Below are positions 3,171 to 33,761 of a stretch of 37,787 bases of DNA, piece after piece. The position numbers were made by a program, and so were the translations under genes. The stretch spans positions 1-37,787 of the forward strand of contig CALYAI010000003.1 of assembly GCA_944393475.1 (NCBI GenBank). The letters run 5' to 3'. Under the pieces are notes generated by a model. It ran no database searches. It was given only the letters and a program-made list of their open reading frames with translations, and was not told where the DNA came from. Positions within the stretch are counted from its first letter, which is position 1. Each line of letters opens with the position of its first letter. The DNA is from an uncultured Clostridia bacterium (GTDB lineage: Bacteria; Bacillota; Clostridia; TANB77; CAG-508).

Positions 3171-3294
3171 GGTTTTAAGCCAATATTTTTAGATGTTTTT
3201 TCCATTTTTTATCTTTTTATAGAATAATTTAATTTGTATTTTTATTTTCCGTATGTTATACTACAAAAAAACGTAATTTTTTAAGGTGAGATAT

Positions 3295-4749
3295 ATGCAA
3301 GATAATAATACTAAAGATAATAATCAAAGAAATCTATCAGAAGCTTTTGAAGAACTAAAAAAAGCTAGGGAAGCTAGTATGCAGAAAGTGCAAAAACGAC
3401 CTACTAGCAAATCTACCTTTTCTAACTCTAAACCAAAAGTAAATAAAATTACTAATAATTCTAAACCAAAGAAGACTAAGCAAAAGAAAATGTCTTCTCC
3501 AAAATTGCCCAAAGCAAAACCTTATAACGGAATTGTAAGATATAAGTTTGATAGATTAAAAAGTAATAAAAAGAAATTTAAGCAATTCATCATTTTATCT
3601 ACTGTATATATTATAGTTATAATTGCTTTAATAGTTTTTATTGTTATGTATATTTCTAGTAAAAACAAGTACGAAAACCCATATGGCGATTTTGTTACTT
3701 ACGAGAAAAATACAAATCCTTTTAATATTAGTCAAATTCTTATTGATAATACTAATTCGACTAAAACAAAGGAAAAAACATATAGGGATAAGGAAATTCC
3801 TTTTTCTACAAAATACATTAAGAATGATTCTCTTCCTAAGGACGAAAAGGTTGTAAAACAACCTGGCGTAATGGGTCTTGAACGTGTTAATATTATTAGA
3901 ACATATGAGGGTGACGATTTAATTGACGAATCAACTTCTAGTATAGATATACTTTTAGCACCTGTTGAAGAAATTGTAGAAGTTGGTACATCGGATTTCT
4001 TAGTAAACTATAATGTACATTTAGGAGATATAATGTATATTATTTCTACAACATCTTTAATGGATGCAATAAATAATGGAACAGAAATTTGCAAAATTAC
4101 TAGATATATGGATGTTACCCTTTTAGAGGTTCTTGGAGATTGGTGTAAAATTTCTTTTGATGGAAAAGAAGGTTATGTTCCTGCCTCTTCATTAACATCA
4201 CAATCAACAACACCTGGCATTGTTGCACAAAACAAAGTTCAAAGAATTATATCAAATTTAAACTTTAATATGTCATTAAATGTAAAGAGTGGTTTAACAT
4301 TGGATGACTATAAACGTATCCTTTCTGGAGAAGCACGTGATGTTAATAAAATATTGGAAAACAATGCAGAAGCATTTTATAATGCAGAACAAAAATATAA
4401 TGTAAATGGAATATTATTAGTTGCAATGGCTATACACGAAAGCGGTTGGGGAACATCTGCAATTTCTTTAGATAAAAAGAATTTATTTGGATATGGTGCA
4501 TATGATAGTGATGCATATAATTCTGCATATACTTTTAATACATATGCAGAAGGAATAGATTTAGTTGCCAAGGTATTAGCAAAAGCATATTTAAATCCTG
4601 CTGGAATGTCTATGCCGGATGGAGATACAACTACAGGTAGATATTATTCTAGTCCAACATTATCCGGTATTAATACAAGATATTCTACAGACCCTAACTG
4701 GTGTACTAAAGTATTTTCTTATATGACATATTTTTATGATAAATTATAG
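3295..4749 (+). CDS. Membrane-anchored peptidoglycan hydrolase: TM, G5, SH3b and GH73 glucosaminidase domains
   Basis: ATG at 3295 follows AAGGTGAG. Basic N-tail and one TM. G5-like EIPFSTKY...VKQPGVMG...PVEEIVEVGT; SH3 WCKISFDGKEGYV; GH73 AIHESGWG, NLFGYGA and YSTDPNW. Confidence 0.88.
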   Translation: MQDNNTKDNNQRNLSEAFEELKKAREASMQKVQKRPTSKSTFSNSKPKVNKITNNSKPKKTKQKKMSSPKLPKAKPYNGIVRYKFDRLKSNKKKFKQFIILSTVYIIVIIALIVFIVMYISSKNKYENPYGDFVTYEKNTNPFNISQILIDNTNSTKTKEKTYRDKEIPFSTKYIKNDSLPKDEKVVKQPGVMGLERVNIIRTYEGDDLIDESTSSIDILLAPVEEIVEVGTSDFLVNYNVHLGDIMYIISTTSLMDAINNGTEICKITRYMDVTLLEVLGDWCKISFDGKEGYVPASSLTSQSTTPGIVAQNKVQRIISNLNFNMSLNVKSGLTLDDYKRILSGEARDVNKILENNAEAFYNAEQKYNVNGILLVAMAIHESGWGTSAISLDKKNLFGYGAYDSDAYNSAYTFNTYAEGIDLVAKVLAKAYLNPAGMSMPDGDTTTGRYYSSPTLSGINTRYSTDPNWCTKVFSYMTYFYDKL

Positions 4750-4790
4750 GGATTAGTAATACATCTTATTTTCCCTAAAAGGAGATTCAA

Positions 4791-5624
4791 ATGAAGAAAT
4801 TTTTAAAAAGGAAAGACTTAGTTATTTTATTAATATTAGTTATAATAATTATCGCATTATTGCCTTTTTATATATTAAAAATTAGAGAAGTAGTTCTTAG
4901 TAATAAATTTGCAAATGACATTGCTAAAGATTATTCTAATTATACAAATCCTGTATTTTATGTTGAAAAAATTATATATTATAGCAGTGCTTTTGTATCA
5001 GATAATAGTGAAAATGGCAATTTGCAAAAAATAAATATTGGGCAATATACGGATATTGCAATATATATTAACAATACAAAGAAATCAGATGCTCTAACAG
5101 ATGAGAACACAATTTCTGAGTTATATATTGACGATATAGAAGTTTCAACAAAATCTGGTAAAGGTGAATGTTTGCTAGCATATAAAAATCCTTATTACTT
5201 TGCAAATTATAAAGGATTGGAAGCTCCAGAAAGTGGTAGAATAGATTTTAATATTATTAACAACAATAAGGATAATAAGGAAAGTGCATATAATTCTCCT
5301 TCATTCTACCATGATTGTTCAAATCCAATTTCCTTAGGATTTATTAATAAAAATATTTTAACAGATGTAACTGTTTCTAACACAGATACTTTTGCTTTAA
5401 ATGGAACTATTCTTCAGAAATTAGATGTTCCATTGGATGATTTAATTTTTAACATGAGTTTTAAAATTCATATTAAAAATAATAAAAATGAAGAATTTGT
5501 CTGCAATGTAGATAGATCCGTATTGGACGACTCTTATGCAAATAGCATTTATAAAGATGGTTACCTTGCTTCGCAATATACTCCAAGTGAAGGTACATAT
5601 CAATTTATAAAAGTTTCAGATTAA
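4791..5624 (+). CDS. Hypothetical protein with N-terminal membrane anchor
   Basis: 277-aa ORF, RBS AAGGAGA, basic then hydrophobic N-terminus; no family recognised. Confidence 0.8.
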   Translation: MKKFLKRKDLVILLILVIIIIALLPFYILKIREVVLSNKFANDIAKDYSNYTNPVFYVEKIIYYSSAFVSDNSENGNLQKINIGQYTDIAIYINNTKKSDALTDENTISELYIDDIEVSTKSGKGECLLAYKNPYYFANYKGLEAPESGRIDFNIINNNKDNKESAYNSPSFYHDCSNPISLGFINKNILTDVTVSNTDTFALNGTILQKLDVPLDDLIFNMSFKIHIKNNKNEEFVCNVDRSVLDDSYANSIYKDGYLASQYTPSEGTYQFIKVSD

Positions 5625-5635
5625 TATAAAAGTAT

Positions 5636-5676
5636 AAAAACCACCTATTAATAATATAAATGAATAGGTGGTTTTT
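5636..5676 (+). promoter_or_regulatory. Inverted repeat (terminator-like) covering the RBS of the SpoVB-like gene and overlapping a possible SigE-type promoter
   Basis: AAAAACCACCTATT-13 nt-AATAGGTGGTTTTT is a perfect 14-bp stem. GTATA-N16-AATATAAAT resembles the SigE ATA-N16-cATAcanT consensus. Confidence 0.6.
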
Positions 5677-7200
5677 TTGAGGAAAGTAAAATTATTTATT
5701 ATAAATGGGCTTGCTCTATTTTTTATATCATTTTTTTTACAACTTATTGGTGTATCTTTTGGAGTGTATATATCTAATAGAATTGGTGATGAAGCCGTTG
5801 GATTATATCATTTATTAATGTCTACCTATTCTTTTGGAATTACTCTTGCCTTTTCTGGAATTAACTTAGCTTGTACCCGTATTGTGTCCGAAGAACTTGC
5901 AGTAAAGAATTTAAAAAATATAAAAATAGTCATGAGAAATTGCTTGCTATATAGTTTATTTTTTGGTATATTCGCTTTTCTTTTATTTTCTTCATTAGCA
6001 AATGTAATTTCTAAAAATATTTTACATAGCAAAATATCTATTAGTACAATTTGTATAATGGCCTTTTCCTTTCCATTTGCTTCTATTTGTTCTTGCTTAA
6101 GTGGTTATTTTTCTGCTGTTAGACATATTGTTAAAAGTGCAGTAGTACAAATCGCAGAACAAATATTTAAAATGGCTATTGTTGGTTTATTCCTAAGCTA
6201 TTTCTTCGATTCTTCTATTAATTCTGCTTGTTTGCTAATAGTGTTAGGAAATAGTATTTCCGAGGTTCTTTCCTGCTTTATTATGTTTCTTATTTATAAA
6301 TTTGATAGAAATAAATTATATAAAAAATATGGATACAAAGAAAATAATTTAAATTCTAATAATATTACAAAGAGGATTTTTAATATATCTCTTCCAATTT
6401 CGTCCACTACATATATTAAATCTGGACTATCTACTTTAAAGCAAATATTAATTCCAATAAAGCTGGAAGCTTTTGGACTAACTTGTAGTGAAGCTCTTTC
6501 TAAATATGGTATGATTAACGGAATGGTTTTCCCCATACTTTTATTTCCCAGCACCCTTTTGGGATCTTTTAGTGGACTTCTTATTCCTGAGTTTTCCTCT
6601 TTTAACATAAAGGGAGAAAATGAAATTATAAAAAATTCCATATATAAAATAATTAAATATACTTTAACATTTTCTTTTTTTATACTTGGGGTTTTCTTTT
6701 GTTTTGCTAATGAATTAAGTTTTTTAATTTATCATAATAATGAAATTGCTGAATATATAATATTTCTTACTCCAATAATTCTTTTTATGTATTTGGATAA
6801 TATCGTTGACGGAATTTTAAAAGGATTAAATAAACAAGTTAGTGTTATGATTATAAACATTATAGATTTAATAAGTACAATTTTCTTAATTTGGCTATTA
6901 TTGCCACTTTATGGCATTAAAGGATATTTATGTGTCTTATTTATTAGCGAAATTTTAAATTGTGGATTAAGTATTATCGTATTATTAAAATCTACTAAGT
7001 TAAAATTTGATTTAAAACAGTGGGTAATAAAGCCTTGCTTCGCTTTTTTTATAAGTACTATTATTCTTAATTTTATAAAAATAAGTTCATATAGTATTTT
7101 CCCTTTAATGGTAAATTTAATAATTTATGCTTTTATCTTTTGTATAGTATGTTTTTTTGTTAAGCTAATTTCGAAAAAAGAAATTAATTATTTTCTATAA
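5677..7200 (+). CDS. spoVB: SpoVB/MurJ-like MOP-superfamily flippase (stage V sporulation protein B-like)
   Basis: About 14 TM segments with VYISNRIGDEAVGLYHL, GYFSAVRHIVKSAVVQIAEQ and GMINGMVFPILLFP. Start is probably TTG 5677 (RBS AGGTGG 5 nt upstream); the ORF track uses GTG 5668. Confidence 0.78.
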   Translation: MRKVKLFIINGLALFFISFFLQLIGVSFGVYISNRIGDEAVGLYHLLMSTYSFGITLAFSGINLACTRIVSEELAVKNLKNIKIVMRNCLLYSLFFGIFAFLLFSSLANVISKNILHSKISISTICIMAFSFPFASICSCLSGYFSAVRHIVKSAVVQIAEQIFKMAIVGLFLSYFFDSSINSACLLIVLGNSISEVLSCFIMFLIYKFDRNKLYKKYGYKENNLNSNNITKRIFNISLPISSTTYIKSGLSTLKQILIPIKLEAFGLTCSEALSKYGMINGMVFPILLFPSTLLGSFSGLLIPEFSSFNIKGENEIIKNSIYKIIKYTLTFSFFILGVFFCFANELSFLIYHNNEIAEYIIFLTPIILFMYLDNIVDGILKGLNKQVSVMIINIIDLISTIFLIWLLLPLYGIKGYLCVLFISEILNCGLSIIVLLKSTKLKFDLKQWVIKPCFAFFISTIILNFIKISSYSIFPLMVNLIIYAFIFCIVCFFVKLISKKEINYFL

Positions 7201-7729: not shown

Positions 7730-8857
7730 TTACCCCAGAGTTAAATTTAAAACATTTGTGTTGTTTCCTCTTTTATATTCTATCTCTATAATGTCTCCAG
7801 GATTTTTTGTATAAATATATTCTTTTATATCATTAATTGTATATATTTCCATTCCATCAATTTTTAGAATTATATCTCCTTTTCTTAATCCACTATTTTC
7901 TGCTGGTCCTCTAGCAGTTACACTTTCTATATATACTCCACTATCTAAATTTAAAGATTTATCTATATAAGAAATTATATCTTTGTCATACCCGGAAATT
8001 CCAATTATGGCTTCTTTAAACTCACCCGTAGTATTATACTTATCTATTATTGGTTTTAATATATTTATTGGCACAGCAAAACCAATTCCTTCTGCAGAGT
8101 CAATTTTTAAAGAATTTATACCTATAACTTCACCATTTGTATTAATTAATGGTCCTCCACTATTTCCCGGATTTATTGTTGCATCTGTTTGTATTAGATC
8201 AGTCATTAATACTTCTTCCCCATTTTCATTAAATTTTATCGTTCTAGACTTTGCACTTATTATTCCAGCAGTAACTGTTCTTTCAAATTCATAACCAAGA
8301 GGATTTCCCACAGCATATACTGTCTGTCCTGCCTGCACATTATCCGAATTTCCTAATTTTATACTCTGTAATCCTTTCATATTTATTTTTACTATGCTTA
8401 AGTCCATATCTGAATCTGCCCATACGACTGTTGCTTCATATGTGTTACTATTTTCTAAGGTTACATAGCAAGTACTATATTTATCACCCGAAACATGTCT
8501 ATTCGTTATTATATATCCATTTGCAGATGCTATAACACCTGTTCCCAATCCTAATTTTTCTATTCCATCCTCTGCTAAAACAGAACTTCCCATGTTTTGT
8601 AGTTTGGAAATTCCTACAACACTATGGTTAACTTCTTCTATCATCTCCTCTATCCCAATATCTTTTTCTTCTTTTTGAGTCGTAGTCTGCATGGTCCTAT
8701 CTACTTTTAAATCTTCATCTATTTTTGCTATATCAGTTCTTATATATAATCTTACTAAAGAGATTGTTAAAACCATTATTAGAGCAATTACAAATATAAT
8801 AAATAGTATATTTGTAATTCTTCTTTTTTTCTTTTTAGTTCTTTTGTATTCCTGCAT
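7730..8857 (-). CDS. htrA: HtrA/DegP-family serine protease (TM, trypsin-like domain, PDZ)
   Basis: TNRHV, MDLSIVKI, IQTDATINPGNSGGPL and a C-terminal PDZ (GPAENSGLRKGDII). ATG 8857 follows RBS AAGGGG; the ORF track extends to TTG 8905. Confidence 0.93.
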   Translation of the reverse strand: MQEYKRTKKKKRRITNILFIIFVIALIMVLTISLVRLYIRTDIAKIDEDLKVDRTMQTTTQKEEKDIGIEEMIEEVNHSVVGISKLQNMGSSVLAEDGIEKLGLGTGVIASANGYIITNRHVSGDKYSTCYVTLENSNTYEATVVWADSDMDLSIVKINMKGLQSIKLGNSDNVQAGQTVYAVGNPLGYEFERTVTAGIISAKSRTIKFNENGEEVLMTDLIQTDATINPGNSGGPLINTNGEVIGINSLKIDSAEGIGFAVPINILKPIIDKYNTTGEFKEAIIGISGYDKDIISYIDKSLNLDSGVYIESVTARGPAENSGLRKGDIILKIDGMEIYTINDIKEYIYTKNPGDIIEIEYKRGNNTNVLNLTLG

Positions 8858-8951
8858 AAACTTCAACCCCTTTTTGGTAAACTTTGTTATATTTATATTT
8901 TCCAAAAACTAATTTTTAATACAAATTTCATCAAGTATTTTTACTTTTCTA

Positions 8952-8981
8952 TTGAATTTTCACAAGTTATAAATATATAAT
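8952..8981 (+). promoter_or_regulatory. SigA-type promoter for the NRPS-kinase operon
   Basis: TTGAAT-18 nt-TATAAT, then RBS AAAGGATGTG before ATG 9020. Confidence 0.6.
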
Positions 8982-9019: not shown

Positions 9020-12000
9020 ATGAATAAATATCCATTAGCTTTTCCTCAGCTAGCTCTTTGGAGTGTAGAACAGTTTTTTAAAGGAACAAGTGTTAATGTA
9101 ATAACTGGATATATAAAAGTAAAGGAACAGCTTGATCTTGCATTGTTCGAAGAAGCTGTGCAAACAGTTATTGCTAATACGGATATTTTTGGTGTTCATA
9201 TCTCATACCAAAATGATGAGTTAATGCAAACTTTTAATAAAATGGAACGTAGAAAACTTACAATCGTTAATTTTAAAAATGAAGATGAGTTTACTACTTT
9301 TTTAAACACTGTAGCAACAACTTCTTTTGATATTTTTAATGATGATTTATTTGAATTCACTCTTTTTAAATTTCCAGATGGTACTGGTGGTGTTATTGGT
9401 CGTTTTCATCATATTATATGTGATGCATGGTCAATGAGCCTTGTTATTACAAAAATAATGTCAATATACGAGAATTTAAAAAACAAACTTCCAGCTACTC
9501 AAGGAATAGATTTTGAATCATATATTAATTACATTAATTCTGAACAGGAATATATAGGTAGTGCTAAATACGAAAAATCCAAAGAATTTTGGTTAAATAC
9601 TTTTACTAATAATTTTTCTTATAGCTATTTATGTAACAATATTTCTAATTCTTGTAGTGCACTAAGACAAAAATATTCAATTTCTAAAGATTTAGTTAAG
9701 AATTTGAATGATTTTTGCCAAGCAAATTCCATTTCACTTCCATTGTTATTAATTTCTGTTATAGGAATTTATTTAGCAAAAATTAATGATAATACATGTT
9801 CTACTATTGGTCTTCCAATACTAAATAGAACAAATTTTAAGGAAAAAAATACTATTGGTGCATATATAAGTACCATTCCTTTTAAGATAAATATTTCAAC
9901 TGAAGAAAAATATTTGGATTTTATTAAAAACCTAAAGAAAAATTATTTTGAGATACTAAGAAACCAAAAATATCCATATAATAAAATCTTGGAAGATATC
10001 AGGAAGAAGACAAATGTTTCTAAAAACCTTTACGACGTAGCTTTTTCCTACCAAAATGCTAGGGATAATCATTCTACATCAAATATTTCTTACGAAAGTG
10101 ATTGGATTTTTAATGGCTGTGTTTCTAATAATATGGATATACATATATATGATATGGATAACACTGGGGATTTATCTATAATCTTTGATTATAGAAAGGA
10201 TTTGTTTAATTCATCTGATGTAGAGGAAATTTACTGTAATTTAATGAATATTTTAAAACAAATTATGAATAATCCAAACATCTTGTTAAAAGATATTTCA
10301 CCAGTAGCTAGAGTTGTTAAGGATTTTATTTTAAATGAATATAATAATACTTCTTCTAAGTACCCAGGAGAAATTCCAATTATTAGACTATTCGAAGCCC
10401 AAGCTAAGAAAACTCCTAATAAACTTGCCATAGTAGAAGAAAAAAAAGAATTAACATATTCGGAACTTTTAAATTGCATTAATAATTTGGCATATAGGCT
10501 TACAGCTTCTGGCATTAAATATAAAGATAATGTATGTTTATTCTTCGATAATTCAGTTGAATTAGTCGCTTTGATTTTAGCATGTTTAAAGATAGGTGCT
10601 TGCTATATTCCATTAAACACTTCTTTCCCAATCGAAAGAGTTAAATATATTATGGAAGATAGTAATTCTTCTGCAATTATTACTAATTCAAAAAATGTGA
10701 AGAAAATACCTGGATTTACTAATTCCATCGTAATTAATTATGAGGATTTAGAATTTTCATCTAATAAGGATTACAATGAAGATTTATTAAATTCAGATGA
10801 CTTAGCATATACGATTTATACTTCAGGCTCAACAGGAAATCCAAAAGGAGTTCAAATTGCAAATAGAAGCTTAGTAAATTATATTTATTGGTGTACAAAA
10901 CAATATGTGGCTGGCGAAACCGCAAATTTTCCACTATATTCTTCCATTGCATTTGACCTAACAGTAACATCTGTTTTTACTCCTTTAATTTCTGGAAATG
11001 CAATATATGTATATAATAATTCTAATCCTGAATTATTAATTAAAGAAATTGTAGAAGATAAAAAAATACAGGTACTAAAATTAACCCCTGCACATCTTAC
11101 TTTATTATTAGATGTTGCAACTCCTGACACCTGTATTAAAAAATTAATTTTAGGTGGAGATATCTTAACTGCAGAAATATGTAAAGCAATTACAAATAAA
11201 TTACATAATGGAATAAAAATATATAATGAATATGGTCCGACAGAAGCAACAGTTGGCTGTATGATATATGAATATAGCCTTTTGGATGATTATGTCTCTG
11301 TTCCAATTGGAAGACCAATAGATAATGTGAAAATTTATATATTTAATTCGTCAATGAATTTAATGCCATATAATACTATTGGTGAAATGTATATTGGCGG
11401 AGATTGCCTATCTAAGGGATATTTAAATCTTCCAGAAGTTAATAAAAAAAGTTTTGTACAAAATCCTTTTAATAAAAAAGAAGTACTTTACAAAACCGGT
11501 GATTTAGCTGTAATGCATCCTAATGGAGTTATGGAATACATAGGTAGATCGGATTTTCAAATTAAAATTAATGGATATAGAATAGAAACCGGAGAGGTTC
11601 AATCACAAATACTAAAATATCCATCAATTAAGGATTGTTATGTTATAGATATGAAAATAAAAAATAACAAAGAGCTTTGTGCATACTATATAGAATCTGA
11701 ACCTGTTAATATTGATGATTTAATTGCTACATTGGACAAAAAATTACCAAATTATATGATCCCTAAATATTTCATAAAAATGGATTCATTGCCAATGACA
11801 GTTAATGGTAAGGTAAATAGAAAAGAATTACCTCTTCCTGTAATAAAAAGGAAAGTGGCTCTTATACCTCCTGAAAATGAAGTGGAGGAAAAACTTTGTA
11901 AGGTATTTTGCGAAATTTTAGAGATTAAAAAGATAGGTACAAATGAAAACCTTTTTGATTATTATTTAGATTCTTTAAGCTTAATAAAAGCACAGACTAA

Positions 12001-13297
12001 ATTATATTCAGAAGGATATAATTTGGATACACAGGATTTTTATAATAATAAAACAATTAAAAATTTAGCAGATTATATAATTGGTGGTTATAAAAAAGAA
12101 GAAACAAATAATGAAGAGCTAACAGATATTCATTTTTCGATATCTGATATTCAAAAAGATTTAAAAGCACCCGTAAAAATTAAAAATGTATTGTTATTTG
12201 GTGCAACTGGATTTTTAGGTGTTCATTTACTTCGTGAATTACTAATGAAAACAAATTATAATATATATTGTTTAATTAGAAGCAAGAACAATATAAATCC
12301 AACCGAAAGATTAAAAGAGAAAATAAATTTCTATTATCCAGATACGGATATTAGCAAATATGTAGATAGAGTTACTATTTTGGAAGGAAATTTATTGGAC
12401 GAACATTTTGGATTACAAGATGATGAATATAATAATTTACTAAATACTATTGATGTTTGTATACATTCTGCTGCACTTGTAAAACACTATGGAGACTATA
12501 ATTTATTCCATCAGACAAATGTTGTCTCTACAGAAAAAATAATTGAATTCTGTAATGCAGGACATAGTAAGTTGGAATATATTTCTACAATTTCTGTTTC
12601 AGGATTTGGATTAGTGGACACACCTATTGCTGAATTTAGCGAAAACAATTTATATATTGGTCAAAATTATAAAGATAATGTATATGTACATAGCAAATTC
12701 GAAGCAGAGTATTTAATAATAGAAGCTTGCAAAAATACGAATTTAGTAGCAAGTATTTATAGAATTGGTAATCTTTCTAACAGATATAGTGATGGTGTTT
12801 TCCAAGAAAATGCATTAGAAAATTCTTCTTTAAATAGAATAATTGCATGTATAAACTTAGGTTGCTATCCAAAAGAATTAGAAGATTTTCATTTGGAATT
12901 TTCACCTGTTGATATTTGTGCAAAGAATATTGTTTCTTTAATGAATTGTCAAGATAAAAATTTAAAAGTATATCATTTATATGATGATCACTTTACAGAT
13001 TTCGGAAAGATTAATAAGATTTTAAAAAAGAATAATATAAATTTAAAGTCAGTTACGGCAAAAGATTTTAAAGATAGTTTATTAAATGATAAAAATAATT
13101 ATTTTGGTTTTGCAAATTTAATAAATAATACTATTACTAGTAATTTAAAAATAAGTAATAAAATTACAGAAGATACTTTAGTAAAGCATAATTTATGTTG
13201 GCCAGAAATTAATTCTTCTTATATACAAAAAATTATTGATTATTTAATAAAAAATAAATTTATAAAAGGAGCAAAAGATGAAGAAAAATCCAATTAA
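9020..13297 (+). CDS. Single-module non-ribosomal peptide synthetase, C-A(Asn-like)-T-R (terminal thioester reductase)
   Basis: C: RFHHIICDAWS. A: YTSGSTGNPKG, FDLTV, NEYGPTE, YKTGDL, GRSDFQIKINGYRIE, NGKVNR. T: LDSL. R: VLLFGATGFLG, ISTISV, YVHSK. Confidence 0.95.
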   Translation: MNKYPLAFPQLALWSVEQFFKGTSVNVITGYIKVKEQLDLALFEEAVQTVIANTDIFGVHISYQNDELMQTFNKMERRKLTIVNFKNEDEFTTFLNTVATTSFDIFNDDLFEFTLFKFPDGTGGVIGRFHHIICDAWSMSLVITKIMSIYENLKNKLPATQGIDFESYINYINSEQEYIGSAKYEKSKEFWLNTFTNNFSYSYLCNNISNSCSALRQKYSISKDLVKNLNDFCQANSISLPLLLISVIGIYLAKINDNTCSTIGLPILNRTNFKEKNTIGAYISTIPFKINISTEEKYLDFIKNLKKNYFEILRNQKYPYNKILEDIRKKTNVSKNLYDVAFSYQNARDNHSTSNISYESDWIFNGCVSNNMDIHIYDMDNTGDLSIIFDYRKDLFNSSDVEEIYCNLMNILKQIMNNPNILLKDISPVARVVKDFILNEYNNTSSKYPGEIPIIRLFEAQAKKTPNKLAIVEEKKELTYSELLNCINNLAYRLTASGIKYKDNVCLFFDNSVELVALILACLKIGACYIPLNTSFPIERVKYIMEDSNSSAIITNSKNVKKIPGFTNSIVINYEDLEFSSNKDYNEDLLNSDDLAYTIYTSGSTGNPKGVQIANRSLVNYIYWCTKQYVAGETANFPLYSSIAFDLTVTSVFTPLISGNAIYVYNNSNPELLIKEIVEDKKIQVLKLTPAHLTLLLDVATPDTCIKKLILGGDILTAEICKAITNKLHNGIKIYNEYGPTEATVGCMIYEYSLLDDYVSVPIGRPIDNVKIYIFNSSMNLMPYNTIGEMYIGGDCLSKGYLNLPEVNKKSFVQNPFNKKEVLYKTGDLAVMHPNGVMEYIGRSDFQIKINGYRIETGEVQSQILKYPSIKDCYVIDMKIKNNKELCAYYIESEPVNIDDLIATLDKKLPNYMIPKYFIKMDSLPMTVNGKVNRKELPLPVIKRKVALIPPENEVEEKLCKVFCEILEIKKIGTNENLFDYYLDSLSLIKAQTKLYSEGYNLDTQDFYNNKTIKNLADYIIGGYKKEETNNEELTDIHFSISDIQKDLKAPVKIKNVLLFGATGFLGVHLLRELLMKTNYNIYCLIRSKNNINPTERLKEKINFYYPDTDISKYVDRVTILEGNLLDEHFGLQDDEYNNLLNTIDVCIHSAALVKHYGDYNLFHQTNVVSTEKIIEFCNAGHSKLEYISTISVSGFGLVDTPIAEFSENNLYIGQNYKDNVYVHSKFEAEYLIIEACKNTNLVASIYRIGNLSNRYSDGVFQENALENSSLNRIIACINLGCYPKELEDFHLEFSPVDICAKNIVSLMNCQDKNLKVYHLYDDHFTDFGKINKILKKNNINLKSVTAKDFKDSLLNDKNNYFGFANLINNTITSNLKISNKITEDTLVKHNLCWPEINSSYIQKIIDYLIKNKFIKGAKDEEKSN

Positions 13298-15281
13298 AAA
13301 ATTATTATTAATTCATATGGTCCTTATGGCCTTTATATGTATAATGCTATATTTGCTTATACCATATGTATTAAATTATCCACCAAATTCTATAGATAAT
13401 GACTTTCAGATCGAAGTTGTTGGAATAAAATATAGTACTCAATTTATAATTTTAGCAGTTGTTCTTTCTATTTTTATTTTTACAGCTCTAATGTTTTTAT
13501 ATAATATGCTTTCTTTAAAAAAGATAAGAAATAAAAGTACTAATAAAATTGATGCTAAACAAGTAGAAAAAATAAGGAAAAGAAGTTTTACTTTTCCTTA
13601 TCTAGTATTACTACTTACTTTATTAGTGCCACCGTCTGTTGTATGTTTTTGTTTATTTTTATTTAATACAACACCGGAACTGAACTTAAGAATAACAATT
13701 ATAATCTTCTGTATGTCTGCAATATTTTCGATATGTTCGTATATTGCAAATAAGAGCTTTTTTATAAATACTTTGGTAAAAACGTCAAAAATATCTAATA
13801 ACAAAGTATCTGGTTTAAGACTTAATTTATATACCAAAATATTATTACAGATGTTACCAATATTCTTATATTCATTTATAATTATATTGTTATTATCTTT
13901 ATCTTTACTAACAACGGAGAAAGGTGACTTAATTTATAATTTATATCATCAGGAGCTTTCTAATTATTTCTCTGACAAAAGTAAAGTATATGATATAAAT
14001 GAATTACCAAATATATTAAAAGAAAATATAGAATTACAAAACCCAGAAGATAATTTCTTTATTATATCTTGCACAGATGGTAAGATACATTATTCAGAAG
14101 AAGAATTAAATACATTCTTCCAAAAATATTTAAGTGAATTTTACGATAAGACAAATGGACATATTTATGATAACTATGGTCAGAATATAGAAGGAAGTGC
14201 AATAAAGATACATACAAATGAAGGAGATTGCTATATTGGTGTTAGGTTCTATGTATTCTCTACTTCTTTTGTAACACCATTTATAATTGCAACAATAATA
14301 TTAATCTTCTTTAATATATTATTCGTATTATATATTAGTAAGGATTTAAGTAATGATATTAAAACCATAAGTAGGCAACTAAAAGCAATTGCAGCTTCCG
14401 ATGATATCTCTAATGAGCATAATTTACCAGTTACCTCAAATGATGAATTAGGTGACTTAACTATTGCATTTAATAGGGTTCAAGATAAAACAAAAGAATA
14501 TAATGATACTATTAAATCAAATCAAGAAACTCTTATGGAAAGTGAACGTCTAGCATCTCTAGGACAATTGATTGGAGGAATTGCTCACAATCTAAAAACA
14601 CCTATTATGTCAATTTCTGGTGCAGCAGAAGGATTAACAGATCTAGTAAAAGAATATGATTCTTCTATAGACGATCCAGAAGTAACTTCTGCAGATCACC
14701 ATGATATTGCAAAAGATATGAATGAGTGGATCGGAAAAATTAAAACATATGCAGAATATATGTCTGATATCATAACTGTTGTTAAAGGTCAAGCTGTAAA
14801 TCTTTCTTCTGATAATAATATGTATTTTAAAATTGATGAGTTGTTAAAAGATATTAATATTTTGATGAAGCATGAATTAAAGAGTGCTCTTGTTACATTG
14901 GATATTCATAATTATGTTGGCTCAGATGTACAAATAAATGGTGACGTTAATGCTTTGGTTCAAGTAATTAATAATATGATAACAAATGCTATACAAGCAT
15001 ATAATGGGGAACCAAATAAAACTATAAATTTAACCTTAAAAACAGATGCTTCTAAGTTATTCATAGAAGTTCAAGATTCTGGCTCTGGAATGCCTGACGA
15101 AGTAAAGGATAAATTATTTAAAGAAATGATTACTACAAAAGGTAAAAATGGTACTGGACTAGGATTATTTATGTCCTACTCTACTATAAAAGCACATTTT
15201 AATGGTAATATAGATTTTGAATCTGAACTTGGAAAAGGAACTACTTTTATAATAACCATTCCATTACCAAAGCTTAAATAA
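13278..15281 (+). CDS. Sensor histidine kinase (about 6 TM, extracytoplasmic loop, HAMP, HisKA, HATPase)
   Basis: HAMP LPVTSNDELGDLTIAFN; H-box LGQLIGGIAHNLKTP; N-box QVINNMITNA; DSGSGM; GTGLGL. Overlaps the NRPS 3' end by 20 nt; RBS AAAGGAG. Confidence 0.95.
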   Translation: MKKNPIKKLLLIHMVLMAFICIMLYLLIPYVLNYPPNSIDNDFQIEVVGIKYSTQFIILAVVLSIFIFTALMFLYNMLSLKKIRNKSTNKIDAKQVEKIRKRSFTFPYLVLLLTLLVPPSVVCFCLFLFNTTPELNLRITIIIFCMSAIFSICSYIANKSFFINTLVKTSKISNNKVSGLRLNLYTKILLQMLPIFLYSFIIILLLSLSLLTTEKGDLIYNLYHQELSNYFSDKSKVYDINELPNILKENIELQNPEDNFFIISCTDGKIHYSEEELNTFFQKYLSEFYDKTNGHIYDNYGQNIEGSAIKIHTNEGDCYIGVRFYVFSTSFVTPFIIATIILIFFNILFVLYISKDLSNDIKTISRQLKAIAASDDISNEHNLPVTSNDELGDLTIAFNRVQDKTKEYNDTIKSNQETLMESERLASLGQLIGGIAHNLKTPIMSISGAAEGLTDLVKEYDSSIDDPEVTSADHHDIAKDMNEWIGKIKTYAEYMSDIITVVKGQAVNLSSDNNMYFKIDELLKDINILMKHELKSALVTLDIHNYVGSDVQINGDVNALVQVINNMITNAIQAYNGEPNKTINLTLKTDASKLFIEVQDSGSGMPDEVKDKLFKEMITTKGKNGTGLGLFMSYSTIKAHFNGNIDFESELGKGTTFIITIPLPKLK

Positions 15282-15373: not shown

Positions 15374-15402
15374 TTGCTTTTGTGCCTGTTTATTTATATA
15401 AT
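15374..15402 (+). promoter_or_regulatory. SigA-type promoter for the response regulator
   Basis: TTGCTT-17 nt-TATAAT, then AGGAGG at 15412-15417. Confidence 0.65.
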
Positions 15403-15426
15403 TTTTATATTAGGAGGACTGTCAAT

Positions 15427-16455
15427 ATGAGAAAGAATCAAGTTACAGCCAAAAGCACTGGTTTTAAAATAATTGGTGTTGACGATGAACAAGGAATCTT
15501 AGATTCTCTATCTATTTTTATGAAAAGATCTGGCTACGAATTTGTAGGAATAACAGATCCATTAGAAGCAATTAATCGCGTAAAATCTAAACATTTTTAT
15601 TTAATGATACTAGATTTTATTATGGATCCAATTCATGGTGATAAAGTTGTAGAAGAAATTCGTAAATTTAATAAAGATTTATATATTTTACTTCTAACTG
15701 GACACAAAGATTTGGCTCCACCACTAGAAACGATCCATCAATTGGATATACAGGGTTATTGTGAAAAAAGTGATAAGTTCGATCAATTATTGCTATTAAT
15801 AGAATCTGGCTTAAAGTCTGTAAGTCAAATGAGAACTATTAGTAAAATGAATGATGATCTACAAAAAGCATATATGGATAGTATAGAAATTCTAAGACAT
15901 ACAGTAGAAGCAAAGGACCCATATACAAAAGGGCATTCTGACAGAGTTTCTGCATATGCTGTTTTGCTTGGTCAGAAGTTGTCTTTGGCTGGAGAAGATA
16001 TAGAAAAGTTAAGAATTGGTGGACTTTTTCATGATATAGGAAAAATTGGTATCCCGGACAGTATTCTTTTAAAAGAATCTAAATTAACAGACGAAGAATA
16101 TGCAAAGATTAAAGAGCATCCAGTAATTGGCTATAATATGTTGGAACATGCAACGATGTTTAATGATATTCTAGATATTGTAAAATATCATCATGAAAAA
16201 TTTGATGGTTCTGGTTATCCTGAGCAAATAGCAGGTTCTAATATTCCTTATCTCGCAAGGATTACAGCTGTTGTAGATGCCTTTGATGCAATGACTTCAA
16301 AAAGAAGTTATAGAGATTCTTTACCAATGGATGTTGTAAAATCTGAAATATTAGCAAACCTTGGTTCTCAATTTGATCCAGAAATAGGTATCGCATTTTT
16401 AGATATTTTAGATAATAATTTTAATGCCATTAAAGAAATACAAGAAAAGTATTAA
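15427..16455 (+). CDS. Response regulator with REC and HD-GYP cyclic-dinucleotide phosphodiesterase domains (RpfG-like)
   Basis: REC: VDDE, phosphoacceptor ILDFIM, LLTG, CEKS. HD-GYP: YTKGHSDRV, LFHDIGKI, HHEKFDGSGYP, VVDAFDAMTSKRSY. ATG 15427 follows AGGAGG; the ORF-track start at 15382 is too long. Confidence 0.94.
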   Translation: MRKNQVTAKSTGFKIIGVDDEQGILDSLSIFMKRSGYEFVGITDPLEAINRVKSKHFYLMILDFIMDPIHGDKVVEEIRKFNKDLYILLLTGHKDLAPPLETIHQLDIQGYCEKSDKFDQLLLLIESGLKSVSQMRTISKMNDDLQKAYMDSIEILRHTVEAKDPYTKGHSDRVSAYAVLLGQKLSLAGEDIEKLRIGGLFHDIGKIGIPDSILLKESKLTDEEYAKIKEHPVIGYNMLEHATMFNDILDIVKYHHEKFDGSGYPEQIAGSNIPYLARITAVVDAFDAMTSKRSYRDSLPMDVVKSEILANLGSQFDPEIGIAFLDILDNNFNAIKEIQEKY

Positions 16456-16497: not shown

Positions 16498-17463
16498 ATG
16501 GTTTTAACTGCTTCAGAAACAAGAAAGCAAGCTAGAGAATCTTTAAAAGGTAAATGGGGAACTGTTGCTATAATATCTTTAATATTTATAGCATATTCAT
16601 TTTTAATGGGCTTTCTTTCTGCAATACCTTTTCTAGGTTTCTTAGTTTCTATTGCTTCAATTGTTATTAATTTTCCAATTATGTATGGATTTGTAATGAA
16701 TTTTATGAAGCTAAAAAGAGGAGAAGAAGTAGGATATTTTGATTTCTTTAAGGATGGTTTTGCAAATTTTGGAAGAGCATGGTCTGTTCTAGGAAGATTA
16801 TTACAAAAAATGTTAGTACCACTTATTTTACTAGTAGTTGCTGTAATTATTGTAATAGTTGCATTGGTTGGAGTAATAGCTTCAGCAGGTCTTGCTATTG
16901 CTTCTATGGGAGCTTATGTATCTTCTGAGACAGCATTATCTTATCTATTATCAAATGTATCAGTATTTTCATTAGTAGCTATGCTTATAGCTGTTATACT
17001 AGAATTTATTGCTTACATATGGATAATTATTAAATCTTTCCATTATGGACTTGGAATGTATATCGCAATAGATAACCAAAATGCAACAGCACTTGAATGC
17101 ATGAACCAAAGTAAAGAAGTTATGGACGGACATAAAGGTCGTTTATTCAGCTTATATTTATCTTTCATCGGTTGGATTTTACTTGATATGTTATTAGCTG
17201 CAATTCCTGTTGTAGGTGTTATATTATCATATGCAGGATTAGTATTCCTAATACCATATATGCAATTTGCTTCTATTATTTTCTACGAAGATAGAATGGG
17301 AATAAATTCACCTGTAACTGCAGAAGGAACAGTTGCATCAGAAGATTCTGAAAGTAATTCAAACGAAAATGTAGAAAGCAAAGAAATAAAAGAAATGTCT
17401 GGTTCTACAGATGTAAAAGCAGAAATTGTTGATATACCAGAAATAGATAATAAAGACGAATAA
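16498..17463 (+). CDS. DUF975-like integral membrane protein with acidic tail
   Basis: N-terminal ETRKQARESLKGKW, SKEVMDGHKGRLFSLYLSFIGW and LIPYMQFASIIFYE; about 6 TM; RBS AAGGAGG. Confidence 0.8.
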   Translation: MVLTASETRKQARESLKGKWGTVAIISLIFIAYSFLMGFLSAIPFLGFLVSIASIVINFPIMYGFVMNFMKLKRGEEVGYFDFFKDGFANFGRAWSVLGRLLQKMLVPLILLVVAVIIVIVALVGVIASAGLAIASMGAYVSSETALSYLLSNVSVFSLVAMLIAVILEFIAYIWIIIKSFHYGLGMYIAIDNQNATALECMNQSKEVMDGHKGRLFSLYLSFIGWILLDMLLAAIPVVGVILSYAGLVFLIPYMQFASIIFYEDRMGINSPVTAEGTVASEDSESNSNENVESKEIKEMSGSTDVKAEIVDIPEIDNKDE

Positions 17464-17474
17464 TAATTAAATAA

Positions 17475-17510
17475 ATAAAAACTTCTTAGATTATTCTAAG
17501 AAGTTTTTAT
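17475..17510. terminator. Bidirectional terminator between the DUF975-like gene and tex
   Basis: ATAAAAACTTCTTAGA-TTAT-TCTAAGAAGTTTTTAT, a perfect 16-bp stem between convergent genes. Confidence 0.9.
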
Positions 17511-19664
17511 TTACCCTATTTTCATAGAAAGTTTTACTTTTTGTCTTTCATTATCTATTCCAATAACTTTTACCTTTACAATATCTCCTACAGATACTAT
17601 GTCTGATGGATTTTTTACAAATTTTTCACTCATCTCTGATATGTGGACAAGTCCATCATGTTTTACTCCAATATCCACAAATGCTCCAAAGTCAATAACA
17701 TTTCTTACTGTTCCTGTTAATATCATTCCCTCTTTTAAATCCTCGAACTTTAGTACATCCTGTCTTAATATTGGTTTTGGCATATCTTCCCTAGGATCTC
17801 TTCCTGGTTTAGAAAGTTCATCTATTATATCTTTTAATGTCATTTCTCCTACATCAAGCTTTTTAGCGGTTTCTCCAAGTTTTACATCCAATAGTTTCTT
17901 TCTTATTTCAACTAATTTTTCTTTATCCTTTAAATCTTCAGTTCCATATCCTAGTGATTTAAGTAATTCTTCTGCTATTCCATAACTCTCTGGGTGAACA
18001 GCTGTATTTTCCAATGGATTTTTTCCATCAGGAATTCTAATAAAGCCTGCACATTGCTCGAATGCTACTTTCCCTAATTTTGGAACTTTTAATAATTCTT
18101 TTCTTTCTTTTAATTTTCCATTTTCGTCCCTATATTTAACAATGTTTTTTGCAATAGTTTTATTTATTCCAGATACATAAGAAAGTAATGATGGGGTAGC
18201 TGTATTAACATCAACTCCTACTTTGTTAACACTATCTTCTACTACACCTGCTAAGCTTTCTTCCAATTTCTTTTGATTTACATCATGTTGGTATTGACCT
18301 ACACCAATTGATTTTGGATCTATTTTTACAAATTCTGCAAGTGGATCTTGTAATCTTCTTGCAATGGAAATTGCCCCTCTTATAGAAACATTTATGTCTG
18401 GATACTCTTCTGTTGCAAGTTTAGATGCAGAATATACAGATGCTCCTGCTTCGCTTACTATTGTGTATAATACTTTGTGATCACATTTTTTTATCATTTC
18501 AGAAACAAACATCTCGGATTCTCTTGAGGCTGTTCCATTTCCTATTGCAATCATATCTACATGGTCTTTATTTATTAATCTAACTAATTCCTTTTCTGCT
18601 CCAACTATATCATTTTGTGGCTCTGTTGGATATACTGTTGTAATATCCATTACTTTACCTGTTTCATCTATTATTGCAATCTTACAACCAGTTCTATATG
18701 CTGGGTCAAATCCCATAACAGTAATTCCTTTTATTGGGGCTCCAAGTAATAATTGTTTTGCATTTTTCCCAAAAACTTTTATTGCTTGTTCTTCTGCTTT
18801 TTCCGTTAGATCTGATCTTATCTCCCTATCTACAGATGGCTCTATTAATCTTTTAAAGCTATCTTCCACAGTTGCTTTTAAATATTCTGTAAATTGAGTT
18901 TCTCCCTTTATTATGTCTTCTTCTATTTTTCCTAAAATCTTTTCTTCATCTTTTATGATTTTTACTTTTAAGAATTCTTCTTTTTCTCCCCTATTAATAG
19001 CAAGTATTCTATGGCTAGGCATTTTATTTACATTTTCACTATAGTCATAATACATCTCGTATGCAGATCTTTCATCTGGCTTTGTTGCTTTTGTTTCTAT
19101 AGTACCTTTAGAATATATCATTTGCTTTATCATTTTTCTATATTCTGGATTGTCAGATATCATTTCTGCAATAATATCCAATGCTCCCTGAATTGCCTCT
19201 TCTACAGTTTTTACTTCTTTTTCTTCATTAATAAACTGTTCTGCTATTTCTTTTATATCTCTTTTTTCTTCTTGAGCCAAAATAATTTCTGCTAAAGGCT
19301 CCAATCCCTTTGCTTTCGCAACAGTTGCTCTTGTCTTTTTCTTTTGCTTATATGGTCTATATATATCTTCTACTTCTGCAAGTGTTGTTGCATTTTGTAA
19401 GTCTTGTTTTATTTCATCTGTTAATTTCCCTTGCTCATTTATAGAATTTTCAACCTCTTCTTTTCTTTTTTCTAAGTTTCTTAAGTATGTTAATCTTTCG
19501 CCAAATGTTCTTAAGATTTCGTCCGAAAGACCTCCAGTTACTTCTTTTCTATATCTAGCTATAAAAGGAATTGTATTGCCTTCATCTATTAAATTTATAG
19601 TATTTTGCACTTGGCTTTGTTTAATATTTAATTCCTCAGCTATTATTTGTATAATTTTATCCAT
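17511..19664 (-). CDS. tex: Tex-family RNA-binding transcription accessory protein (YqgF, HHH and S1 domains)
   Basis: GNTIPFIARYRKE, GFDPAYRTGCK, AIGNGTASRESE, SIGVGQYQHD, and S1 FGAFVDIGVKHDGLVHISE. Probable start MDKII at 19664. Confidence 0.95.
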   Translation of the reverse strand: MDKIIQIIAEELNIKQSQVQNTINLIDEGNTIPFIARYRKEVTGGLSDEILRTFGERLTYLRNLEKRKEEVENSINEQGKLTDEIKQDLQNATTLAEVEDIYRPYKQKKKTRATVAKAKGLEPLAEIILAQEEKRDIKEIAEQFINEEKEVKTVEEAIQGALDIIAEMISDNPEYRKMIKQMIYSKGTIETKATKPDERSAYEMYYDYSENVNKMPSHRILAINRGEKEEFLKVKIIKDEEKILGKIEEDIIKGETQFTEYLKATVEDSFKRLIEPSVDREIRSDLTEKAEEQAIKVFGKNAKQLLLGAPIKGITVMGFDPAYRTGCKIAIIDETGKVMDITTVYPTEPQNDIVGAEKELVRLINKDHVDMIAIGNGTASRESEMFVSEMIKKCDHKVLYTIVSEAGASVYSASKLATEEYPDINVSIRGAISIARRLQDPLAEFVKIDPKSIGVGQYQHDVNQKKLEESLAGVVEDSVNKVGVDVNTATPSLLSYVSGINKTIAKNIVKYRDENGKLKERKELLKVPKLGKVAFEQCAGFIRIPDGKNPLENTAVHPESYGIAEELLKSLGYGTEDLKDKEKLVEIRKKLLDVKLGETAKKLDVGEMTLKDIIDELSKPGRDPREDMPKPILRQDVLKFEDLKEGMILTGTVRNVIDFGAFVDIGVKHDGLVHISEMSEKFVKNPSDIVSVGDIVKVKVIGIDNERQKVKLSMKIG

Positions 19665-31648: not shown

Positions 31649-31685
31649 AGGAACACCCCTTAATTGCATAAATATTATTATTATC

Positions 31686-31714
31686 AATATAGCAACATAT
31701 TTTTCTTAATTCAA
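31686..31714 (-). promoter_or_regulatory. SigA-type promoter for the surface-protein operon
   Basis: Minus strand TTGAAT-17 nt (ending TGC)-TATATT. Confidence 0.6.
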
Positions 31715-31910: not shown

Positions 31911-33161
31911 CTATGGTAAGTATTTTGCTGGATCGACTCTTTGTGAACCATTAACTCTTATTTCGAAGTGCAAATGTGCTCCACCCGTAGGGTTGCTAGG
32001 TGTTGGTCTTGGTTGTACATTTCCTGTATTACCAACTGTCATTATTTGTTGTCCTTGTGATACTCTTTGTCCTTCTTTTACTAATCTACTTCCTGGCTTT
32101 CCATGTGCATATAATGTTATATTACCATCATCATGCAATATTGCTATATATTCGCCATAACTTCTATACTTTCCTATTAAATTTCCATTTGAATCATAGT
32201 TTGGTATGGTTCCTGTTAATGTTTCTGAAATTACAACTGTACCACTCTTAGCAGCTACTACTGGTTTTCCATAGTTTCCTCCAAAATCTGCTCCGCCATG
32301 TCCAGAATATCCATAAAAACCACATGTTATATTTCTTTTACTTAATCCTGGGATTGGGCATATATATCCCTTACTACTTGTTCCTCCAGAATTATTGCTT
32401 GATCCTCCTGAGCTACCACTAGAGCCATTTCCTTTATTGTTGTTTTTATTTGCATTAGCTATTGCTTCAAGTCTTGCATCTATTGCTGCTTTATCCTTTT
32501 CAAACTGTGCTAAATCTTTTTGTAAATCACTTGCTTGACCCTGCAAACTATTTATGTATTTTTCTTTTTCCTTTTTTGTAGAATTTAACTCCTGCGTTTT
32601 TACTTCTTTTTCACTTTTTAAATCTTCTATTTGTAATTTATCATCTTCCAATGATTTCTTAGTTGCTTCTATTTCTTTCTGTTCTTTTTGTATTCTTTCT
32701 AATAAGTCCAAGTCATAAGAAGCTAACTCGGAAATTAAATAATAATTAGAAATAAATTCTGTTAAACTATTTGAAGACAATAGTACATCTAAATATGAAA
32801 CACTTCCTGTTTCATATATTGTTATTAATCTTTCATCCAACAAATTTGAATTTTCCTCATATGCTTTTTGTTGTTCTTCTAATTTTTTTTCGTTTTCTGA
32901 TATATTAGTATTTAATGTATCTAATTTGTCATTTAGTGCATCGATTGAACCTTGGTATTCATCAATCTTGCTCTGTATATTGTCTACCTCATTTTCTGTA
33001 TCCGTCTTTGTTTCGTTTACTTCGTTTAACTTATTTTTTGTCTCGTTTATTTTGTCTTGCAAATCTTTTGAATCCTGTGTTGAAACTCCTAAAGATATAT
33101 TAGTCATAACACAGATTAATATTATTAATATGACTAATATTTGTTTTAGCATTTGTTTCAT
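31911..33161 (-). CDS. Secreted coiled-coil plus M23 peptidase (murein hydrolase, EnvC/CwlO-like architecture)
   Basis: Signal peptide; PcsB-like coiled coil (YLDVLLSSNSLTEFI); G/S/N linker; M23 HGGAD and HLHFE zinc motifs intact. ATG 33161 follows GGAAAGGG. Confidence 0.9.
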   Translation of the reverse strand: MKQMLKQILVILIILICVMTNISLGVSTQDSKDLQDKINETKNKLNEVNETKTDTENEVDNIQSKIDEYQGSIDALNDKLDTLNTNISENEKKLEEQQKAYEENSNLLDERLITIYETGSVSYLDVLLSSNSLTEFISNYYLISELASYDLDLLERIQKEQKEIEATKKSLEDDKLQIEDLKSEKEVKTQELNSTKKEKEKYINSLQGQASDLQKDLAQFEKDKAAIDARLEAIANANKNNNKGNGSSGSSGGSSNNSGGTSSKGYICPIPGLSKRNITCGFYGYSGHGGADFGGNYGKPVVAAKSGTVVISETLTGTIPNYDSNGNLIGKYRSYGEYIAILHDDGNITLYAHGKPGSRLVKEGQRVSQGQQIMTVGNTGNVQPRPTPSNPTGGAHLHFEIRVNGSQRVDPAKYLP

Positions 33162-33759: not shown

Positions 33760-33761
33760 TT

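Follow-up and report, generated by a model that had tools for sequence, protein, structure and literature searches.

A 37,787-nucleotide stretch of DNA from an uncultured Clostridia bacterium (positions 1 to 37,787 of contig CALYAI010000003.1, assembly GCA_944393475.1; hereafter the window) encodes a stand-alone nonribosomal peptide synthetase (NRPS) and, with a start codon that overlaps the end of the NRPS gene by 20 nt, a histidine kinase of 667 aa. On balance, this self-sufficient NRPS is probably the synthase half of a polymorphic synthase-receptor cassette, its product being sensed by the adjacent kinase. The strongest argument for a signal, absent from an earlier sequence-only reading of this DNA, is that the NRPS is replaced together with the sensor half of that kinase. 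The window, which is AT-rich (G+C of 23-33%), is part of a metagenome-assembled genome; this assembly counts 115 contigs and 1.33 Mb, with a completeness of 82% and a contamination of 5%. The genes on which the argument turns are the following.

9020-13297, + strand: stand-alone NRPS of 1425 aa (P0001) with the domain order condensation (C), adenylation (A), carrier (T) and reductase (R), from the translation of the open reading frame (ORF) and its Pfam and NCBIfam domains
13278-14417, + strand: histidine kinase, variable sensor half, residues 1 to about 380, with six membrane helices predicted by a hydropathy scan
14418-15281, + strand: histidine kinase, conserved half, with the end of HAMP, HisKA and HATPase_c (Pfam)
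15382-16455, + strand: response regulator, REC and HD-GYP, with the motifs HDIGK and HHEKFDGSGYP intact (Pfam, NCBIfam)
7730-8905, - strand: HtrA-type serine protease with PDZ, divergent from the NRPS gene, a conserved flank outside the variable block (Pfam)

Replacement of synthetase and kinase sensor across loci

Each species is represented by one genome in the set, and the polymorphism visible within genera is therefore between species only. When the NRPS was searched against 399 Clostridia genomes, 58 had a match at E <= 1e-100, and in the bacterium's own family a member of the NRPS family occurs in 151 of 200 species genomes (130 of the 168 of high quality); the family genomes that carry it are only about 1-2 Mb in size. 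We compared 44 loci, namely 40 chosen by NRPS match only, the window and three further loci, and found a histidine kinase directly downstream of the NRPS in 43. The codes read from their A domains comprise the Asn type, DFWNIGMVHK, three Gly-like codes, DAFWLGGTFK, DIFQMAGIFK, DV[AS]YLGGICK and DSELTAEVCK, with five or more single-module codes, plus a two-module allele, in the window's own genus.

Comparisons within single genera revealed flanks, kinase core and regulator that are 71-99% identical, around NRPSs of 36-40% and kinase sensors of 22-36% identity. Two genomes of one genus with different codes, G227 and G200, share 92% identity in HtrA, 99% in Tex, 93% in the regulator and 38% in the NRPS, and their kinases are 27, 24, 22, 31, 80, 92 and 98% identical in successive 100-aa segments. 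A same-genus pair with different codes from another family, G096 and G310, has the same profile (MutS2 86%, regulator 89%, NRPS 40%; kinase 27, 30, 35, 36, 85, 91 and 90%). The window and the same-genus, Gly-code locus of G589 are 71% identical in HtrA, 86% in the regulator and 36% in the NRPS, with kinase values of 34, 27, 30, 36, 89, 82 and 83% and a break near residue 380. Between the window and L010, an Asn-code locus, HtrA (71%) and the regulator (86%) give identical figures, the NRPS reaches 80% and the kinase 74-91% throughout; the flanks of G589 and L010 are equally related to the window. The regulator is 84-90% identical within the genus regardless of the NRPS allele. Such joint variation of synthase and sensor, beside a kinase core and a regulator that are conserved, is the pattern of an agr-like pherotype cassette.

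We extended this comparison to all 465 pairs among 31 of the 43 kinases, those of 640-700 aa located beside single-module NRPSs. Sensor identity tracks the code class from a core identity of >=60%, and the two classes do not overlap above 70%. At a core identity of >=80%, sensors from loci of the same code are on average 81.7% identical (minimum 59.2, n=11), compared to 26.9% for different codes (maximum 32.7, n=10); at 70-80%, the values are 50.6% (minimum 42.0, n=11) and 24.8% (maximum 29.7, n=72), respectively. Trees built with FastTree, which provides local support only, gave a similar picture. The NRPS tree covered 38 of the 44 loci; four enzymes with two modules were set aside, as were G253 and G331, which are truncated or split. 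In this tree as in the sensor tree, sequences cluster by A-domain code across genera, the Asn clade covering g1, g4, g6, g7 and g220 with a support of 100. On the contrary, the kinase-core tree and the regulator tree (22 sequences) cluster by genus.

The genes are also lost together. Among the 49 NRPS-less genomes of the family, we analyzed five chosen for completeness (92-100%) and genus spread. None has a kinase ortholog (best identity of 28-32%) and the regulator ortholog is missing in four; the fifth keeps a 232-aa piece containing HD-GYP only. With 57% identity to the HD-GYP part of the regulator, this ORF (G056:C11:23686-24336) appears to be a leftover of the locus.

This co-replacement is hard to explain unless the sensor recognizes the NRPS product, and we consider a receptor-ligand link between the two reasonably probable. 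Several observations weigh against it. At a core identity of 50-60%, sensors from same-code loci (27.8%, n=17) do not differ from those of different-code loci (26.2%, n=95), Asn-code loci of other families (G092, G096) have unrelated sensors, and the 465 kinase pairs are phylogenetically dependent. One locus, G044, has a TPR protein where the kinase is expected. Furthermore, physical linkage could partly explain the co-replacement of adjacent stretches. In its extreme form, this last point would make the NRPS and the kinase mere neighbours: the sensor would be hypervariable for another reason, for instance because exposed loops are under pressure from phages or antibodies, and the NRPS would hitch-hike, the variable stretches being contiguous so that a single recombination event replaces both. 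We regard such hitch-hiking as very improbable given that the variable block spans the whole of a 4.3-kb cytoplasmic enzyme, that variation is as high in the membrane helices as in the loops (18-45% identity in 25-aa windows over sensor residues 1-375), that NRPS and sensor clades match over at least five genera, and that the genes are lost together.

Two-module alleles provide a further point against hitch-hiking because they accompany a different sensor. Enzymes with the order C-A-T-C-A-T-R occupy the same chromosomal slot, with a kinase downstream, at L014, L066 (G146), L073 (G552), L083 (G504) and L084 (G566). Their kinase is of about 600 aa with seven helices (hydropathy profiles of two, G146 and G552), and its C-terminal core is 57-66% identical to that of the window. 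The NRPS of L014 is split into ORFs of 829 and 1661 aa. As a separate observation, in the sister family f2 (L057, L058, L061-L063, L065) the kinase that follows a single-module NRPS is of 575-593 aa; the one scanned, from G399, combines a PAS domain with an N-terminal region of the HisKA_7TM type, and G016 has two such kinases in tandem.

Domain architecture and predicted substrate of the synthetase

The ORF at 9020-13297 (+) is an intact and complete one-module C-A-T-R synthetase, with its four domains in one polypeptide and all Pfam and NCBIfam domain matches over cut-off, AMP-binding_C barely so.

9023-10303, + strand: N-terminal C domain, residues 2-428 (Pfam PF00668, 1e-73), with HHIICDAWS at residue 130 (nt 9407)
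10391-11812, + strand: A domain, residues 458-931, from AMP-binding at 458-802 and AMP-binding_C at 859-931 (Pfam)
11888-12079, + strand: carrier (T) domain, residues 957-1020, PP-binding (Pfam), with the phosphopantetheine Ser985 in DSL
12185-13264, + strand: terminal thioester reductase (R) domain, residues 1056-1415, from TIGR01746 (NCBIfam) and PF07993, NAD_binding_4 at 1061-1304 (Pfam)

The sequence-only reading had described the same domain order without an epimerization (E) domain or a downstream module, and Pfam and NCBIfam agree: neither detects an E domain or a further module in the 1425-aa protein. Its interval, on the other hand, started at 9407, which is the first His of HHIICDAWS and lies inside the gene. 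With a single A and a single T domain, the enzyme does not have the two-module layout of the peptide-aldehyde family of gut bacteria. The catalytic motifs are present (HHIICD at 130, DSL at 984, GATGFLG at 1061, and Y1222 and K1226). Although 38 single-module alleles are only about 35% identical overall, all 38 retain His131 and Asp135 of the C domain, Asp984 and Ser985 of the T domain, and G1061, G1064, G1067, Y1222 and K1226 of the R domain; the first His of HHxxxD is kept in 36. The top NCBIfam whole-protein match is AusA (4e-204, residues 28-1411, aligned to the second module of AusA), with a score of 681 bits that is far under the cut-off of 2500 for this model.

We determined the A-domain code from columns anchored on conserved core motifs, on which the GrsA position numbers are also based, using ClbN as a control. 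Residues 646, 647, 650, 687, 710, 712, 737, 745, 746 and 931 read DLTKIGEVGK, the Asn-type code proposed earlier. The motifs on which that proposal was built all lie within the ORF: FDLTVT at residues 645-650 (nt 10952-10969), VLKLTP at 685-690 (nt 11072-11089), LILGG at 709-713 (nt 11144-11158), NEYGPTEATVG at 736-746 (nt 11225-11257) and NGK at 929-931 (nt 11804-11812). At the same columns, ClbN of E. coli CFT073 reads DLTKVGEVGK, identical at nine of ten positions, the sole change being Val to Ile at position 299. ClbN activates L-Asn, and position 322 is Glu in Asn-type codes but His in Asp-type codes. The enzyme thus carries the DLTK.GEVGK-type residues, with Glu at 322, that characterize Asn-activating A domains at the sequence level. 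ClbN is also the best match of the A domain in the clb island (245 bits, compared to 180-233 for the remaining full-length matches to A domains). In a survey of 2051 A domains, DLTKIGEVGK is treated in the Asp/Asn section and described as compatible with beta-cyano-alanine too (PMC12283262, section 12). In relatives, identical columns yield DFWNIGMVHK and DILQLGMIWK, given in that survey as Thr-type and Gly-type signatures, respectively (PMC12283262). The A domain therefore very probably loads L-asparagine onto the T domain, as judged from these residues.

The code is not a property of the whole enzyme family. All 73 single-A proteins among the best 120 matches have it, the window's own included, in a list ranked by an Asn-type query. 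We nevertheless rejected the view that every single-module relative has the Asn code because, in the genome-based set, only 13 of the 38 full-length single-module enzymes do and the 25 others differ.

Acylation, release and the predicted product

A partner NRPS encoded elsewhere, which the sequence-only reading had named as grounds for abandoning its interpretation, was found neither in the bacterium's own genome (82% complete) nor in five relatives. The own genome has one Condensation match, two PP-binding matches (the NRPS and a 79-aa ORF) and four stand-alone AMP-binding ORFs of 491-634 aa. Since this genome is incomplete, we extended the search to five relatives with orthologous enzymes and a completeness of 95-100%; each has a single Condensation match and, besides the T domain of the NRPS, only carrier ORFs of 80-167 aa. 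A second condensation domain or another multi-domain carrier is thus absent from the own genome and from all five relatives, which indicates that the enzyme works alone. As a consequence of having one module only, its product would be an amino-acid derivative and not a dipeptide.

Whether the C domain acylates was assessed from its position, its relatives and its neighbours. It begins at residue 2 with no upstream aminoacyl-carrier donor, which is the position of a starter C domain. Two-module homologs account for 46 of the best 120 matches (30-39% identity), and in all 46 the N-terminal C1 is the orthologous counterpart of this C domain (about 260-330 bits, compared to about 90-125 for C2). 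Within the clb island, its best match is the C domain of ClbN (97 bits, compared to 64 for ClbH, 54 for ClbJ and no match for ClbB). A fatty-acyl-CoA-ligase-like gene, with long-chain-fatty-acid-CoA ligases as best match, adjoins the NRPS in 8 of the 44 loci, including the Asn-type loci of G587 and G493; in G587 it overlaps the NRPS start. However, other observations point the other way. The ClbN match is just 19% identical, and a ranking of sequences in the PDB puts elongation C domains first (TycC 2jgp, 1e-24; LgrA, 2e-19), ahead of 7c1h (1e-11) and CDA 4jn3 (6e-6), which we take to be starter C domains. No acyl ligase lies beside the NRPS in the window. Moreover, the search for phosphopantetheinyl transferases detected one ORF per genome, of AcpS size (117-167 aa), in the own genome (C1:8788-9138) and in G173, G227, G200, G589 and G531; no Sfp-type enzyme was found in these six genomes, which leaves the priming of the T domain unexplained, a point of relevance to heterologous expression. 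The starter type proposed by the sequence-only reading consequently has indirect backing from C1 orthology, His131 and Asp135, the ClbN match and the adjacent ligases, with the PDB ranking speaking against it, so that the signals on the C-domain subtype are mixed. N-acylation by the C domain is modestly favoured by this sequence evidence.

The likeliest product would accordingly be an N-acyl-Asn aldehyde or alcohol, two forms of release between which sequence cannot distinguish. In rotihibin, an Asn module followed by an R domain was proposed to yield L-asparaginol (PMC8552735). The alternative to acylation is that the C domain does not acylate and that free asparaginal is released and dimerizes to a dihydropyrazine or pyrazine, this compound, or none, being active. 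From two-module relatives, the compounds isolated were pyrazinones lacking an acyl group, which form non-enzymatically from dipeptide aldehydes (PMC12327764), an outcome that counts against an acylated product here. The rank of the C domain with elongation types in the PDB and the lack of an acyl ligase in the window also fit this chemistry. We nonetheless find it quite improbable, as the C domain retains both catalytic residues, His and Asp, in 38 of 38 very divergent alleles, an aminoacyl donor module is found in neither the own genome nor the five relatives, and ligase genes do adjoin the NRPS in other loci. A pyrazine could still be the ligand of the kinase, and this alternative therefore bears on the chemistry and not on the signalling.

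The sequence-only reading had further proposed that the product closes to a five-membered hydroxy-lactam or lactone and mimics acyl-homoserine lactones (AHL) at AHL-type receptors. The Asn code and the terminal reductase make an Asn aldehyde or alcohol plausible, and attack of the side-chain amide on the aldehyde is chemically reasonable on general grounds. Yet the NRPS-kinase arrangement is the same in relatives with Thr-, Gly- and Val-type codes, the products of which are unable to form that ring, and Asn-specific ring chemistry therefore cannot be the principle of the family. In addition, the linked putative receptor is a membrane histidine kinase, and we found no LuxR-type autoinducer-binding domain (PF03472) in the 82%-complete own genome, in which LuxI was not searched for. 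An AHL look-alike thus seems highly improbable, and the earlier interpretation is partly supported: its signal idea gains from the co-replacement of NRPS and kinase sensor and from the presence of a probable two-component receptor, and draws no support from AHL chemistry.

The relationship to two-module enzymes raises another possibility. A C-A-T-C-A-T-R family of peptide-aldehyde NRPSs in gut Clostridia was reportedly described by Guo et al. (Cell, 2017) and by Schneider and Balskus (2018; ruminopeptin, RupA). We equate our two-module matches with this family on the basis of their architecture and source rather than of named records. They resemble the window enzyme by full-length homology, the clade of the N-terminal C domain, the terminal reductase, an origin in metagenome genomes of gut Clostridia and a shared locus; they differ in having two modules and a dipeptide product, compared to one module and an Asn code here. 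Reviews present the two-module relatives as sources of inhibitors of host proteases, more precisely of peptide aldehydes that inhibit cathepsins (PMC12282076; PMC12327764). By analogy, the product could be mainly an outward protease inhibitor, an N-acyl-Asn aldehyde directed against host or microbial proteases, with the two-component system just regulating its production or answering envelope stress. This explanation draws on the homology and C1 orthology described above and on the HtrA protease gene that adjoins the NRPS in this bacterial family. It leaves unexplained why sensor and NRPS are replaced together when the kinase core, the regulator and HtrA keep the type of their genus, and why NRPS, kinase and regulator are lost jointly; nor is HtrA found at this position in other Clostridia families. 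We therefore judge it unlikely as the main function, although protease inhibition and signalling may coexist. HtrA as the target of such an inhibitor was set aside because it is a conserved flank in this bacterial family only.

Neighbouring genes, known systems and the proposed circuit

The other features of the locus are as follows.

8952-8981, + strand: promoter-like site, TTGAAT, an 18-nt spacer and TATAAT, about 40 nt upstream of the NRPS start (consensus scan)
16498-17463, + strand: DUF975 membrane protein, last gene before the terminator, frequent at the locus but not constant (Pfam)
17472-17513, no strand assigned: two-way terminator-like hairpin between DUF975 and the convergent Tex gene (pattern scan)
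33577-33649, - strand: tRNA, the only match of an Rfam scan of the window

The promoter-like site is a pattern match only, such sites being rarer in the region than in its shuffles (53 compared to a mean of 83.8). The Rfam scan revealed no riboswitch upstream of the NRPS in the window. The pattern scan detected no terminator-like site on the + strand in the gaps between the four genes, from NRPS to DUF975; the two other + strand matches lie inside ORFs, at 9856-9875 (NRPS) and 16900-16913 (DUF975). In the kinase, the loop between helices 5 and 6 is about 125 aa long. The regulator ORF as listed has a GTG start and encodes 357 aa; its true start is probably the Met at residue 16, because same-genus orthologs are of 342 aa. 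The only GGDEF-like ORFs found in the own genome, L067 (C31) and L068 (C14), give partial family matches of 57 and 34 bits. Neither contains the GG[DE]EF motif, a point against the proposed circuit, and GGDEF-like matches in relatives are weak and partial. The cyclic-nucleotide substrate of the HD-GYP output, with c-di-GMP as one candidate, is for these reasons uncertain.

Farther away, two overlapping giant ORFs of 1474 and 1633 aa at 22372-31687 (-) have a surface or adhesin-type look, SdrD_B and carboxypeptidase-regulatory-like domains being their sole Pfam matches over curated cut-offs. Cell-wall and sporulation genes flank the locus at 3286-7200 (+) and 31911-35573 (-); they encode a glucosaminidase with G5 and SH3, a 277-aa protein of no family, a SpoVB-like flippase, an M23/PcsB-like peptidase and a VanW/G5 protein.

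Several known systems share parts of this organization. ClbN, XcnA and AmiA are prodrug starter modules (starter C, Asn-specific A, T) that make N-acyl-Asn. The window enzyme has the same succession of an N-terminal C and an Asn-type A domain as ClbN, with codes that differ at one position in ten and the best C and A matches in the clb island, but ClbN goes on to an E domain and a long assembly line, whereas here a reductase ends the line. AusA and PvfC make pyrazinones and pyrazines derived from amino aldehydes; both release their products by a terminal reductase, as predicted here. AusA, the top NCBIfam match, differs by its two A domains and by the lack of an N-terminal C domain. The last module of rotihibin RthA, compared by description only, likewise combines an Asn module with reductive release (PMC8552735). 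It is, however, the fifth and final module of a lipopeptide line of Streptomyces, and is not known to have a linked kinase.

On the signalling side, a close parallel is the staphylococcal agr system (AgrB/AgrD, AgrC). In agr specificity groups, the genes that make the signal and the AgrC sensor vary together beside a conserved kinase core and regulator, with alleles across species. This hypervariable block over signal production and membrane sensor is what we observed here, without any sequence relationship: agr uses a ribosomal thiolactone peptide and a LytTR DNA-binding regulator, compared to an NRPS and REC-HD-GYP in the window. The Xanthomonas DSF system (RpfF, RpfC, RpfG), CqsS and LuxN combine a small lipid-like signal with a multi-helix membrane kinase; CqsS and LuxN are membrane-kinase autoinducer receptors, and RpfG, which the output of the window's circuit resembles, is the REC-HD-GYP output regulator of the DSF system. 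Unlike the system of the window, these rely on crotonase, PLP-enzyme or LuxM-type synthases and on hybrid kinases, and belong to Proteobacteria. We found no paper describing the NRPS-kinase cassette, nor any on this C-A-T-R enzyme, in the open-access literature.

As we infer them, the substrate, the acyl donor, the released form, the binding of the product by the kinase and the output would combine into the following circuit. The A domain would load L-Asn onto the T domain, and the N-terminal C domain would then place on the Asn amine a fatty acyl group taken from an acyl-CoA or acyl-ACP of primary metabolism. Reduction by the R domain with NAD(P)H would release N-acyl-asparaginal, or N-acyl-asparaginol after a second reduction. 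The product would be sensed by the six-helix membrane sensor of the kinase encoded by the overlapping gene, and the conserved kinase core would phosphorylate the REC-HD-GYP regulator, probably a cyclic-dinucleotide phosphodiesterase. By analogy with the systems above, the circuit most likely resembles those of the quorum-sensing or autocrine type, with specificity groups set by the amino acid of the A domain, Asn in the window. Its product probably serves gut Clostridia with small genomes as a self-made signal.

Members of the enzyme family abound in metagenomes of the human gut, and clusters of the Asn-type protein at 90% identity contain up to 1054 sequences each. The mosaic kinase gene points to a role different from, or additional to, the protease inhibition published for two-module relatives, namely a self-recognition signal with amino-acid-coded specificity groups. 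More tentatively, and at somewhat less than an even chance, the locus might represent an undescribed class of signals: N-acyl amino aldehydes or alcohols made by one-module NRPSs, with a co-inherited six-helix sensor kinase and a REC-HD-GYP regulator, in which A-code dialects (Asn; Thr-, Gly- and Val-type, and others) are swapped as cassettes between genera. In that case, the two-module peptide-aldehyde NRPSs would represent further alleles of this signalling locus, and inhibition of host targets would not be their primary role. Because the enzyme is predicted to use Asn and to stand alone, the masses of its product can be predicted for metabolomics searches. If true, this proposal would provide a handle on communication in uncultured Clostridia with reduced genomes.

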